From Planctomycetota bacterium (GTDB lineage: Bacteria > Planctomycetota > Planctomycetia > JALXBF01): a stretch of 64,000 bases of DNA. Where the stretch lies: the NCBI GenBank assembly GCA_026991575.1, contig JALXBF010000138.1, positions 11,099-75,098 on the forward strand, in the 5' to 3' direction. The notes below the pieces were generated by a model. That model searched no databases. It saw nothing but the letters and a program-made list of their open reading frames with translations, and was not told the origin of the DNA. A program made the translations under genes and the position numbers. This document shows, piece after piece, positions 30,236 through 36,756 of this stretch; the stretch's first letter is position 1, and each line of letters begins with the position of its first letter.

Positions 30236-32266
30236 GTGGCAGCGCCACCGGAAGTGGTCAAACGTGTCGAAGAGCTGCGTAAGCTCATCGAGTATCACAA
30301 CTACAAGTACTACGTCGAGGATAGCCCGGAGATCAGCGATCGGGACTACGATCGTCTGGTCGAAGAGCTGCGGCAGTTGGAGGAACGCTATCCGGAGTTG
30401 GTCACGCCTGACAGCCCGACGCAGAAGGTCGGTGGACAGCCGGTTGGCTACCTGCCTACCGTCGTCCACGACCCGCCGATGCTGTCGATGGAGAACACGT
30501 ACAACCAGCAGGAGCTGCGGGCGTTTGACCAGCGGATCCGCCGCATGCTGAACGGTGCCGCCGTCGAGTACATCGTCGAGCTGAAAGTGGACGGTGTCGC
30601 GGTTTCCTGCACCTACGAACACGGCCGGCTCGTGCAAGGCGCTACCCGCGGCGACGGCGTCCGCGGCGACGACATCACCCACAACGTACGCACGATTCGT
30701 GACCTACCACTTCGCCTGCTTGGCGATGATCTGCCCGAGCTGATCGAGATCCGCGGTGAGGCGTACATGCGCAACAGCGATCTATCTGCGGTCAACGAAG
30801 AGCAGCGCCGGCTCGGCCAGCGTGAATTTGCCAATCCGCGTAACGCCGTCGGCGGTTCGCTCAAGCTACTCGACCCACGCATCTGCGCCCGGCGACGCAT
30901 CCGGTTCTTCGCGCACACGCTGGGGAAGTGTCGCGGCATTGAGTTTCGTAACGAGCTGGAGTACTTCCGCTGGGTGCGGGCCCACGGGGTTCCGGTCGTC
31001 GCGCATCGTGGGCCGTTTCGTTCGATTGATGAGGTGATCGCAGTGTGTGATGAGTGGGTCGAGGAGTTGCCCCAGCTTGACTACGAAGTCGATGGGTTTG
31101 TGATCAAGGTCAACGATTTTGCCCAACGCCAGCAGCTTGGCGCAACCTCCAAGGCCCCCCGCTGGGTGATCGCCTACAAGATTGAAAAGTGGGAGGCCGA
31201 GACCCGGATCATCGACATCCGCGTTCAGGTGGGCAAGACCGGTATCCTGACGCCCGTTGCCGACCTTGAACCGGTCGAGATCGCCGGCACGACCGTCTCG
31301 CGCGTTAGCCTGCACAACGCGGACGAGATTAAGCGGAAAGACATCCGGATCGGGGACTGGGTGGTCGTGGAGAAAGCCGGCAAGGTAATCCCGCACGTGG
31401 TCCGTGTCCTGAAGGAACGGCGAACCGGACGGGAACGCGTGTTCCAGTTCCCGACGCGCTGCCCGGTATGCGGGGCGCCGGTGAAGCGTGACCCAGGCGG
31501 CGTCTACATCCGCTGTACCAACCCGGCCTGTCCCGCGAAGTTGAAGCAGCGGATCAAGTTCTTTGCCCACCGCGACGCAATGGACATCCAGGGTCTGGGC
31601 GACAAGCTGATCGAGCAGCTCGTCGAGAAGGGATTAGTCAACAGCATTGCCGACCTGTACAAGCTGACGCTGCCGCAGCTGGTCAAGTTGGAGCGCATGG
31701 GGGTCAAGAGTGCGACGAACCTGTTGAATGAGTTGGAGAAAAGCAAGAGCCGCAGCCTGGAGCGGCTGCTCACTGGCCTGGCTATTCCCCATGTCGGTCG
31801 CTACGCTGCCGAATTGCTGGCTCGGCATTTCCGCACCATGGACCGACTGATGGCGGCAAGCCGCGCCGAGCTTGAGGCAATCCCGGAGATTGGCCCGGTG
31901 ATCGCAGAATCGGTTTACGAGTTCTTCCGCGACCCGGAAAACCGGCAATTGATCCGCGAGCTCAAGGAGCTTGGGCTCAACATGGAGTACCGCGCAGAAA
32001 CGGAGCAGGCCGCAGCTGGCCAGCCGTTGGCCGGCAAGACGTTCGTCGTGACGGGAACGCTCAAGAACTATACCCGCTCGGAAGTGGAAGAACTGATTCG
32101 GCGGCACGGCGGCCGAGTGGCCTCGAGCGTGTCGCGGAACACCGACTTCGTTGTCGTGGGCGAGAATCCCGGCAGCAAGCTACAGCGCGCCCGTGAGCTG
32201 GGTGTCCCGACCATCAGCGAAGAAGAGCTCGAGCAGATGATTCGTCAGGGGGCGCCGGCACGTTAG
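30236..32266 (+). CDS. ligA: NAD-dependent DNA ligase
   Basis: Adenylation motif [10 protein letters not shown]. Ia domain ...[20 protein letters not shown]. Zn-finger CPVCGAPV...C. HhH repeats. C-terminal BRCT ([10 protein letters not shown]). GTG start. Confidence 0.95.
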
Positions 32267-33998
32267 CCGCCGTTTTGCCCCGCGACGCTCGGTCAGGTGG
32301 CACACGCAGATACCGTAGAGTCCGCTCAAGCATTCGCGCCAGCTCCGGAGCGGCCACCTCACCACCGTAATGATGGCCCGGCCCGGACGGATCATCGACC
32401 AACAGGTAGGCGACCACTTCGGGCGCCCGTAACGGGCCTCCAGCAACGAACGAACTCACATGCCTGCCTTTCATGTACCCGCCGCCCGCCGGGTTCGGCT
32501 TTTGAGCAGTGCCGGTCTTGCCGAACAGCACATAATCGGCCAACCGCGCCCGCCTGCCGGTGCCGTATGGCGCCTCGATGACGTCGCGAAGCACATCCTG
32601 CACTAGGTACTCGGTCACTTCGGAGCGCACCACGCGGCGCAGCACCTCAGGGCGATCGTGTATGAGTTTCACCGTGCCATCGGCCGCGAGCACCCGACGC
32701 ACCAGCGTCGGGCGCAGCAGATAGCCGCCGTTGGCCAGCGCGGCGAACGCACGCAGGAGCTGAATCGGCGTCACGCCGATTTCATGGCCCATGGGGATGG
32801 AGCCCAGCGAGTAACGATTCCAGAGATGGAACGGCAGCACCTTGCCCGGCACCTCGCCCGGCAGCTCCACACCCGTACGCTGGCCAAAGCCGAACAGCTC
32901 CACGGCGCGAAAGACCCCTTCCAGCCCGAGCCGCTCTGCGATGACAGCCATGCCGATGTTGTCCGAACGAATCAGCACCTCGCGGAACGGCAGGATACCA
33001 TGCGGATGAACCGAATGAAGCACCCGCCGACCCATGCGGTAGACGCCACCGTGACAGTCGATCTTGTCCTCTGGTGACACGACCCCCCAGTTCAACGCGG
33101 CGGCGGCAATGAACGGCTTGAAGGTTGATCCCGGCTCGTAGATAGCCCCGATGGCCCGGTTCAACCACGCGTCCTCAGGCGCGGCGCCCGGCCGGTTCGG
33201 ATCGAACGTTGGCCAGCTGGCCAGGGCCAAGAGCTCACCCGTGTTCGGATCCATTACCAGGCACACAGCGCCGCCACGCGGTTGCCATTGCGCCACCACG
33301 TTTCGCACGGCGTCCTCTGCGAACTGCTGGATGACCGCGTCGATAGTAAGCTGTACCGTGGCACCCGGTACCGGATCGCGGCGACGACGGTGGTCGAAGT
33401 GAATCGGTCGCCCCCGGGCATCGCGGTACACGTACCGGCTGCCCGGCTGTCCGCGCAGCAGTCGGTCGAAGTACTGCTCGATACCACCATGGGGTTCCAG
33501 GTCTACATCGCGGAAACCAAGCACATGGGCCGCCAGCGATCCTTTTGGGTAGATCCTCTGGTACTCCCGGCGGAACCCAAATTCGCGTGGGTCAAGACTC
33601 AAGCGTGATAGCTCTGCGAGCTCCTGCTCGCTCAGCCGACGTTTCAACCAGACGAAGTAGCGGTCGGAGCGCCGGCGGATTCGAGCCGCAAGATCTTCCG
33701 GCCGCACGTCCAAGATCGCCGCGATCGGGGCCAGCCGTCGCTCAAGGTCCCCCTGGCCCAGAGCACGCGGATTAGCGTAGAGGCTGTAGACGGGAGTGCA
33801 GGTTGCCAGCAGACGACCGCGTCGATCGACGATGTCACCGAGCGGTGCAGGTATCCGCTCACGATGCCCCCTCTGGCGACTCACGGCCGGAAACAGCTCC
33901 GGTGCGACACGCACCGCCACATAGCATGCTCTTGCAGCGGCGACCAGCAGGCCGGCCGTTAGCACCGAGCAGACTATCCAGGAGCGGGTCCGGTTCAT
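32214..33998 (-). CDS. peptidoglycan D,D-transpeptidase (class B PBP, FtsI/PBP2-like)
   Basis: N-terminal TM anchor. SxxK (STFKPF), SxN (SDN) and KTGT (GKTGTA) motifs. 594 aa. Its 3' end overlaps ligA by about 50 nt (convergent). Confidence 0.85.
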
Positions 33999-34011
33999 GG
34001 GAGGGAGGCCG

Positions 34012-35647: not shown

Positions 35648-35818
35648 GCCGTTCTCCGACGGATGCGTCACGTCATGCCATAGCTGTTTTGCGTACCGCA
35701 ACATTGCGGCAATGGGCCTCCATGCCAGCCGGTGCTCCTTACTGCGAGCATGCAGACACGTCGTTTCCCGGCCAGCGTACTGTGCGGCACAATCCTGGCG
35801 GAGCTGGCTCTTGTGGAT

Positions 35819-36756
35819 TCATCGGCTACCGGTCGGCGACCGGTCCAACGATTTGCGGAGCCGAGCGGCCCGTAGCTTGGCGCTGCGGGCGCGCGGGTTG
35901 GTGGCGATTTCCGTGGCTGAGGGGCGAATGGGTTTCTTCGTCAAGCGCTCCCACAGTTCCCGATCGGCAAATGCTCGCTTCACGAGGCGGTCCTCCAGCG
36001 AGTGGAAGCTGATCAGTACGGCGCGACCGCCAGGACGCAGGCAGTATGGGAGTTGCTCCAGCAAGCTGCACAGGGCGTCCAGCTCGCGATTCACGACGAT
36101 CCGCAACGCCTGAAAGGTTCGTGTGGCCGGATCGATGCGGCCCCGCTCATAGCCTGCGGGTACGGCCGCGCGGACGATCTCGGCCAGCTGTTCGCTCGTT
36201 TCGATCCGGCTGCGTCGCCGTGCTCGGACAATCGCTGCTGCGATGCGACGTGCGTACCGCTCCTCGCCGTACTGTTTCAGGATGCGGGCCAGCTCCGGTT
36301 CAGGCAGCTTATTGACCAGTTCAGCCGCCGTTGGGCCGGGAGCGGTCGGATCCATCCGCATGTCGAGCGGCCCGGACAGCCGAAAACTGAAGCCGCGGCC
36401 AGGGTCGGCCAGCTGGTCGGAGCTGATTCCCAGATCGGCCAGCACGCCGTCGACTCGGTCCACCCCGAGCTCGTCAAGCACCTGGCGAAGGTCGGCAAAG
36501 TCGGCGTGGCAAAGCCGGACGTTACCCAGACCATCCAGGCGTTGGGTTGCCAGTTGAAGCATGTCAGGATCACGGTCCAGGCCGATCAGCAACCCCCCGG
36601 GCGCGATGCGCGACAAGATGGCAGCCGAGTGTCCCCCCGATCCCACAGTGCAATCGACCACGATCGCGCCGGGCGCGGGGTTCAGGTAGCTGAGCACGGC
36701 ATCCAGCAGTACGGGCACATGCCGTGCGCTGGAGCGTTGCTGCCGCGCGTCGTCGC
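35819..36756 (-). CDS. rsmH: 16S rRNA (cytosine1402-N4)-methyltransferase RsmH (MraW)
   Basis: HVPVLLDAVLSYL...IVVDCTVGSGGHSAAIL...DLGISS motifs. The tracked ORF start (36805) runs into a terminator hairpin. GTG 36756 with a GGAGTG RBS is more likely. Confidence 0.8.

Follow-up and report, generated by a model that had tools for sequence, protein, structure and literature searches.

A predicted membrane-anchored LysM protein encoded directly after rsmH in reduced division and cell wall gene clusters, apparently of Planctomycetota

How planctomycetes manage to divide when they have no FtsZ is recognized as an unsolved question (PMC5147048, PMC12673574), and the loss of ftsZ and ftsB together with fragmentation of the gene cluster for division and cell wall (dcw) is established for Planctomycetota (PMC12673574, PMC12283558). 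The locus analyzed here raises the question of what an additional gene is doing inside the remnant of such a cluster. It lies in a 64-kb stretch of a 470-kb metagenomic scaffold from a Planctomycetota bacterium (contig JALXBF010000138.1), which we call the window, and comprises on the minus strand rsmH (35819-36760), an FtsL-like gene (34012-34344) and a gene for an FtsI-type class B penicillin-binding protein (PBP; 32214-33998), with a gene for a predicted bitopic LysM protein (34376-35704) between rsmH and the FtsL-like gene. An earlier sequence-only reading had described this reduced rsmH, FtsL-like and FtsI layout as ending on ligA, and our analysis bore this out, with all genes at the positions it gave. 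The same reading held that absence of the LysM gene from this position in close relatives would point to a random insertion; all close relatives proved to carry the gene there, as did distant lineages.

The distance from rsmH to the PBP gene is 1824 bp in the window. In 79 control loci of Verrucomicrobiota, Acidobacteriota, Omnitrophota and others, taken from a genome-collection scan with the PBP, this gap measured 311-866 bp (median 389) and nearly always held one open reading frame (ORF) of ~120 aa. No close species representative was found in that scan, which returned loci from other phyla only, at 34-41% identity. The gene order of the window recurs in three close lineages (hydrothermal-vent metagenome-assembled genome loci L082, L083, L086, L087 and L088; L084; L089), where a family 4 glycosyltransferase (GT4) gene, a gap of ~600 bp, rsmH, the LysM gene, a small ORF, the PBP gene and a convergent ligA follow one another, with some short contigs not spanning the whole block. 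RsmH in these lineages is 68-73% identical to that of the window and the PBP 63-82% identical.

More distant loci keep the same slot. L095, whose RsmH and PBP are 53% and 40% identical to those of the window, carries queA, GT4, rsmH, a gene for a 674-aa LysM protein with two LysM domains, a 93-aa ORF and the PBP gene. On the Tara Oceans scaffold L170 the order is queA, GT4, mraZ, rsmH, LysM, a 110-aa ORF and PBP, and because the MraZ is Pfam-positive (E 2.5e-24) and the 110-aa ORF matches a hidden Markov model (HMM) of the small protein, with the PBP following in order, the LysM gene there lies, by gene content, within a bona fide mraZ-rsmH-X-ftsL-ftsI segment. The complete genome of Singulisphaera sp. 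PoT (CP186274; L092) encodes a 751-aa LysM protein after rsmH, the start of its gene overlapping the rsmH stop, and has neither an FtsL-like gene nor ftsI at this locus; the same overlap is seen in a related high-GC metagenome locus, L134. A convergent Mur ligase gene stands directly after the LysM gene in both (L092, 10462-11979; L134, 11031-12488). This ligase, of 505 aa and with all three Mur ligase domains, is probably MurE, and MurE probably still adjoins the remnant in these two loci although ftsL and ftsI are gone. Altogether, at least six independent lineages have the LysM gene at this position, RsmH identity among them falling as low as ~50%.

An rsmH-anchored metagenome scan provided a census of 80 loci with RsmH 49-61% identical. 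A LysM ORF of the family was found directly downstream on the same strand in 21 of these, 18 of them encoding two LysM domains, while five short contigs showed the N-terminal motif and transmembrane (TM) helix only and 40 loci were too short to decide. Thus the rsmH-LysM pair is kept in 21 of 35 decidable loci, and mraZ precedes rsmH in eight of the 21. Two further loci, L093 and L085, were rejected as family loci, their context being unrelated. These comparisons indicate that the LysM slot directly after rsmH is kept across deep lineages, apparently of Planctomycetota. As a separate observation, some LysM-less rsmH loci carry another small envelope-type ORF after rsmH (L122, 9133-10506; L146; L148), one of which encodes a 458-aa protein, rich in Pro and Ala, that begins with a hydrophobic segment, while others are lipoprotein-like. 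Such ORFs may be replacements or LysM-less derivatives.

The rsmH-linked proteins share more than a LysM domain. At least 22 of 27 sequences have a juxtamembrane signature, G-K/R-E-x-K/R-I/V-G-L, that extends into the TM helix and has a basic pair after it, with variants such as SLARDTRVGL in the window (A-R-D-T-R-V-G-L), RETRFGL in Singulisphaera and NETKLGV in L095. This motif and the TM helix form the most conserved part of the family outside LysM. Orthologs were defined by the N-terminal motif, TM helix and LysM in combination, and since the rsmH-linked sequences have the N-terminal signature in common as well as the LysM domain, they are orthologs, not chance LysM matches. The proteins span 420-750 aa with linkers of 300-600 aa, and the stretch from TM helix to C-terminus measures 344-676 aa. 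Two tandem LysM domains ~90 residues apart are the rule in the census loci and are also found in Singulisphaera and L095; the clade of the window has one. Pfam LysM scored above cutoff in six of 10 relatives' ORFs tested, at 38-48 bits.

In the window, the most likely start of the LysM protein is the ATG at 35704, upstream of the Met chosen by the gene caller; this gives 442 aa, and the choice is favored because the 19 additional N-terminal residues are conserved in three relatives. The sequence-only reading had the architecture of TM anchor, linker and LysM domain right and the length, given as 424 aa from the downstream 423/424-aa start, probably wrong. A single TM helix is predicted at aa 28-46 (35567-35623, minus strand; Kyte-Doolittle, 19-residue window, maximum 2.4), and the LysM domain matches PF01476 at aa 378-426 with 35.8 bits against a cutoff of 20.9. 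AlphaFold2, run on a three-sequence alignment, modeled helices at residues 2-13 and 22-50, the latter with a predicted local distance difference test (pLDDT) score of about 80, a disordered region at 54-372 (mostly pLDDT < 50) and, with confidence, the beta-alpha-alpha-beta fold of LysM at 376-425 (strand 376-379, helices 386-394 and 397-406, strand 422-425; pLDDT 81-89), so that Pfam and model together place the domain at aa 376-426 (34427-34579, minus strand). The 315-aa linker is rich in proline (16.5%), alanine (14.6%), serine (10%) and threonine (9%), has a net charge of -40 and 8% large hydrophobic residues, and contains no tandem repeats.

Alignment with the three relatives, 420-533 aa in total length when the window is included, showed conservation of residues 1-55 and the C-terminal ~70 residues, with a linker variable in length and sequence. 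Weakly conserved linker islands were seen in close relatives at aa 79-84, 98-108 and 139-150, and a low-confidence AlphaFold2 helix at aa 102-107. Basic residues flank the TM helix on both sides. The N-terminus would be cytoplasmic and the LysM domain periplasmic, since LysM must reach the wall. In a Pfam scan at E <= 0.1, LysM was the sole match, with no SPOR and no LytM/Peptidase_M23 domain, and NCBIfam likewise gave no SPOR domain; the NCBIfam YneA model (PRK14125) reached 18.4 bits against a cutoff of 60 (E 0.0016), over the LysM region only. The prediction is therefore of a single-pass membrane protein whose juxtamembrane motif is conserved and whose long linker, acidic and disordered, leads to a confidently modeled LysM fold.

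The small gene downstream encodes a 110-aa protein with a TM helix at aa 6-24 and a coiled-coil-type helix extending to ~aa 66, and belongs to a family of 84-115 aa in which a TM helix precedes a conserved coiled-coil-type helix. It lies directly upstream of ftsI, and the LysM gene stands between it and rsmH; in L086, L087, L088 and L089 its stop overlaps the ftsI start. An exhaustive profile search of 1.84 billion cluster representatives returned only eight proteins, all of 84-112 aa and with the same TM and helix pattern. None of 600 stretches matched in a metagenome scan with the small-protein alignment was a relative, and a PDB profile search found generic coiled coils only. The sequence-only reading had called this protein FtsL-like and suggested an HMM check: size, TM helix and position agreed, and Pfam FtsL (PF04999, E 0.029) and DivIC (PF04977, E 0.031) each hit one of 11 family members below threshold.

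We therefore compared family profiles with hhalign. The small-protein family aligned to positional FtsL proteins of Verrucomicrobiota with 55%, Omnitrophota with 49% and Acidobacteriota with 21% probability, over 67-72 columns; in the two strongest matches the TM helix and the coiled coil line up in register throughout. Genuine FtsL groups scored 79%, 19% and 3% against each other, and a reversed small-protein control 0.1-16%. Because these scores fall within the range of genuine FtsL groups and the gene has the FtsL position, the data are consistent with a putative FtsL, as FtsL-like as the FtsLs of separate phyla are mutually. A chlamydial FtsL candidate, Ct271, was proposed by alignment and sequence similarity to E. 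coli FtsL (PMC4643143).

The PBP (594 aa) has an N-terminal TM helix at aa 7-25, PBP_dimer and Transpeptidase domains (Pfam E 6e-21 and 4e-61) and the motifs STFK, SDN and KTG in its translation. Its best PDB relatives are P. aeruginosa FtsI/PBP3 at 284 bits versus MrdA at 132 bits. No NCBIfam equivalog cutoff was reached (SpoVD 348, MrdA 292, FtsI 224 bits), and the FtsI label thus follows from the PDB ranking and synteny. At the other end of the block, rsmH, encoding the 16S rRNA m4C1402 methyltransferase, was identified by Pfam Methyltransf_5 (E 2e-101) and the TIGR00006 equivalog (324.5 bits, cutoff 154.3); the gene caller places its start at a GTG at 36760 (313 aa), and the reading frame is open as far as 36805. 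From rsmH to the PBP gene, the four genes run head to tail with gaps of 114, 31 and 13 bp, the last between the FtsL-like stop and the ftsI start, and no terminator-like sites were found inside the block. By this spacing, rsmH and the LysM, FtsL-like and ftsI genes probably form one operon.

An annotated counterpart exists in the tractable Planctopirus limnophila. Transposon insertion sequencing (TraDIS) tables list Plim_1787 as "Peptidoglycan-binding LysM" (insertion index 0.130), Plim_1788 as a hypothetical protein (0.093) and Plim_1789 as a Peptidoglycan glycosyltransferase (0.116), all three non-essential, with the non-essential QueA gene Plim_1792 nearby (PMC10632474); Plim_1789 is ftsI in Table 1 of PMC12283558. 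The two mraW copies lie elsewhere, at Plim_2101 and Plim_4021 (PMC10632474), so that in this annotation the LysM gene stays with the hypothetical gene and ftsI, not with rsmH. Among 45 planctomycetes, the orthology pipeline of Rivas-Marin et al. credited only 2 with Plim_1787 and 3 with Plim_1788 (PMC10632474), low counts that we attribute to the fast divergence of the linker and the small protein.

What might such a protein do? We propose that the LysM protein tethers or positions wall synthesis or remodeling relative to existing peptidoglycan, through membrane partners on one side and LysM-peptidoglycan binding on the other, a reading by analogy to which we give roughly an even chance. The TM helix and juxtamembrane segment would dock to partners in the residual peptidoglycan machinery, which could include the FtsL-like protein, FtsI where present and possibly a SEDS (shape, elongation, division and sporulation) polymerase or FtsK, and the flexible linker of 300-600 aa would let the LysM domain or domains reach and bind glycan strands. 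This would be an FtsN-like logic with LysM replacing SPOR. A single gain at an early stage of Planctomycetota is the probable origin of the gene, which would have been kept with rsmH where ftsL and ftsI were later lost. Because the rsmH-LysM pair survives such losses, the role is probably broader than FtsI activation, and FtsI alone is an unlikely partner. YneA illustrates how a TM-LysM protein can act on a septal synthase and still depend on contact with the wall: it binds FtsW through its TM helix and requires LysM-peptidoglycan binding (PMC13396833).

Several observations weigh against this proposal. No LysM ORF was present in 14 of the 35 decidable census loci despite at least 1.5 kb of downstream sequence; two of the 14 are low-GC canonical ftsL-PBP loci, and six retain mraZ or a synteny of planctomycete type. 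In most of the LysM-positive loci whose flanks are long, a PBP is missing from the vicinity, which argues that co-function with FtsI is not obligatory, and many lineages keep rsmH-LysM with no adjacent FtsL-like gene or ftsI, so that the LysM protein cannot depend strictly on FtsI. Its apparent counterpart Plim_1787, identified by annotation and consecutive locus tags only, is non-essential. Topology is ambiguous under the positive-inside rule, given the basic residues at both ends of the TM helix; co-transcription is read from spacing, and the metagenome loci are apparently, by inference, Planctomycetota. The function proposed for the family is putative, and a division role would follow from position and architecture only.

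Three other explanations bear on the same data. An ordinary LysM gene could have been inserted into this dcw remnant recently, at random or by horizontal transfer, which would account for the first word-indexed, single-sequence homolog search, in which the LysM protein returned only three full-length or partial relatives (a profile search added mostly unrelated LysM proteins of Alphaproteobacteria and Actinobacteria), and for the sparse scoring of Plim_1787 orthologs. That scoring is explained by the fast-evolving disordered linker, however, and position conservation in at least six lineages to ~50% RsmH identity, the overlapping start and stop codons in Singulisphaera, the family-wide N-terminal signature and the ordinary base composition over the gene all oppose it; the synteny data in effect refute this explanation, which we consider very improbable. 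It is possible, though rather unlikely, that the protein is a general tether or spacer between inner membrane and peptidoglycan across the enlarged planctomycetal periplasm, with no division link and a position that is a frozen accident. Persistence of the rsmH-LysM pair where ftsL and ftsI are gone would fit such a spacer, as would the varying length from TM helix to C-terminus, the non-essential P. limnophila counterpart and the fact that rsmH has no wall function. A spacer would not explain why the gene stands immediately upstream of the ftsL-like gene and ftsI where both exist and stays with them rather than with rsmH in P. limnophila, and the conserved juxtamembrane motif and TM helix point instead to a specific membrane partner.

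Alternatively, the LysM protein could be a negative regulator of the YneA/ChiZ type, a brake whose TM helix binds FtsW or FtsI while its peptidoglycan-bound LysM domain blocks activity. The minimal architecture of one TM helix and an extracytoplasmic LysM domain is the same, YneA works in this way (PMC13396833), ChiZ has FtsI and FtsQ as partners (PMC7851954), and both the weak YneA model match and the non-essential gene would suit an inhibitor. However, YneA and ChiZ are small and their linkers short (165 aa in ChiZ, of which 26 residues form the linker, PMC7851954), whereas this family has linkers of 300-600 aa and often two LysM domains; YneA is SOS-induced (PMC13396833), whereas the LysM gene sits in a probably constitutive operon with rsmH; the YneA match covers the LysM domain only, far below cutoff; and the gene is kept in lineages without ftsI beside rsmH-LysM. 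We thus regard a brake as quite unlikely. A stronger version of the tethering proposal, in which the LysM anchor is a phylum-specific core part of FtsZ-independent wall growth or division, an FtsN analogue that senses existing peptidoglycan and positions or activates the residual synthase, and the first documented gene gain in the otherwise invariant dcw 5' core, also seems unlikely to us.

The surroundings of the block may retain further traces of an older arrangement. Upstream of rsmH lies a GT4-family glycosyltransferase gene (37355-38527, minus strand; Pfam), and beyond it the divergent queA (38538-39602, plus strand; Pfam Queuosine_synth E 3e-125). The GT4 neighbor is also found in L087, L089, L092, L095, L170 and several metagenome loci, and queA adjoins the block in L087, L092, L095 and L170; across distant lineages, the two are conserved beside (mraZ-)rsmH-LysM (L087, L092, L095, L132, L137, L147, L170). 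Since queA and GT4 are conserved at such distances and QueA lies near the P. limnophila trio, these data suggest an ancestral block of queA / GT4-mraZ-rsmH-LysM-ftsL-ftsI.

Downstream, ligA for the NAD-dependent DNA ligase (30236-32266, plus strand; full LigA domain set in Pfam) converges on the PBP gene. The coding ends overlap, as the sequence-only reading had noted, and the overlap, measured at 53 bp (32214-32266), leaves no space for terminators; it is restricted to this genome, because ligA is convergent behind the PBP gene in the relatives L084, L086 and L089 with gaps of ~10-190 bp. That reading also held that no mur or ftsW genes follow, and a tblastn search with 71 ORFs from seven canonical dcw loci detected no mraZ, mur, mraY or ftsW homologs in the 64-kb window. 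The sole Mur-ligase-fold gene of the window (54689-56137) was rejected as a dcw gene, being FolC. The window has no tRNA or tmRNA genes and contains the planctomycete-typical families DUF1559, BBP7 and DUF1571, which, with the synteny found in Singulisphaera, support a planctomycete origin. A plus-strand outer-membrane and lipopolysaccharide group at 45735-49844 encodes OmpH/Skp, LpxC, LpxA and a Gfo/Idh/MocA oxidoreductase, with an unusually long LpxC of 406 aa whose LpxC domain lies within the first 276 residues.

At the place where mraZ would be expected, the window has a conserved non-coding region (36761-37354, minus strand), ~590 nt between the GT4 gene and rsmH. At the DNA level it averages 71% identity to L087 and L089 and includes long blocks without any change, and conservation is confined to the clade of the window. 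The region does not code for protein, since 3-base periodicity is absent, none of its ORFs is conserved and indel lengths do not follow multiples of three. Two hairpin-plus-T-run, terminator-like elements lie 20-60 nt before rsmH (hairpin at 36789-36820). RNAalifold was also applied to the region, and Rfam gave no match, whether by gathering or by E-value thresholds. The region may be a small RNA that lacks annotation, or it may serve the rsmH operon as a long leader or attenuator. An Arg-rich 178-aa ORF in the public gene call (36768-37304, minus strand) was considered as a divergent MraZ and rejected, having no Pfam or NCBIfam match, no conservation as an ORF and no codon periodicity; the gene caller almost certainly placed it in error on the non-coding element.

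While dcw erosion in Planctomycetota is already known, the LysM gene between rsmH and ftsL is apparently an undescribed, lineage-specific addition, and full-text searches of the searchable literature found no description of a LysM gene in the planctomycetal dcw region. The dcw cluster is said to have undergone 'likely no gene gain' (PMC8871954), a statement to which this gene is a counter-example. Every canonical dcw gene but ftsK is dispensable in P. limnophila (PMC10632474), and lineage-specific factors are sought for this reason. The LysM gene is a concrete candidate division factor, lying in a dcw remnant at a conserved position, encoding a tethered peptidoglycan-binding domain and having an annotated counterpart in a tractable species; orthology tables overlook it, its fast-evolving disordered linker leaving it scored in so few planctomycetes. 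If the protein were only a passive envelope tether, the finding would be a modest annotation improvement.

As in the canonical dcw 5' segment mraZ-rsmH-ftsL-ftsI, rsmH, a gene for a small bitopic coiled-coil protein and ftsI stand in canonical order. Different from that segment are the extra gene between rsmH and ftsL, the lack of any detected mraZ upstream or murE, murF, mraY, murD and ftsW downstream within the window, and the convergent ligA right after ftsI.

Of the analogies to FtsN and DipM drawn by the sequence-only reading, that to FtsN, a late divisome protein of the E. coli type, holds for architecture only. The LysM protein would share with FtsN a bitopic layout in which a short cytoplasmic tail and one TM helix precede a long periplasmic linker of low complexity and a C-terminal peptidoglycan-binding domain, as well as a genetic association with FtsI; FtsN acts, and the LysM protein is proposed to act, alongside FtsL and FtsI. 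It differs in having one or two LysM domains where FtsN has SPOR, in showing no sequence similarity beyond general architecture, and in lacking an identifiable equivalent of the essential FtsN activation helix, the weakly predicted helix at aa 102-107 being the only candidate. The ftsN gene is not known to lie in the dcw cluster, unlike the LysM gene with its place between rsmH and ftsL, and the cytoplasmic tail of FtsN binds FtsA. In most planctomycetes ftsA has been lost (PMC12673574). DipM, a septal amidase regulator of Caulobacter, is a poorer match, sharing LysM-mediated peptidoglycan binding (predicted for the LysM protein) by a division-associated protein. DipM is soluble in the periplasm and combines four LysM domains with a degenerate LytM (Peptidase_M23) domain, whereas the LysM protein is predicted to be membrane-anchored and has no M23 match in Pfam at E <= 0.1.

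YneA of B. subtilis and ChiZ (Rv2719c) of M. tuberculosis are bitopic division inhibitors that, as predicted for the LysM protein, combine one TM helix with an extracytoplasmic LysM domain. Neither the yneA nor the chiZ gene is known to lie in the dcw cluster, whereas the LysM gene follows rsmH by 114 bp in the same orientation and encodes 442 aa with a 315-aa linker and a conserved juxtamembrane motif of its own. Since the defining features tested were not found in it, the LysM protein is, by its predicted features, not a member of the FtsN, DipM or YneA families; it resembles all three in logic.

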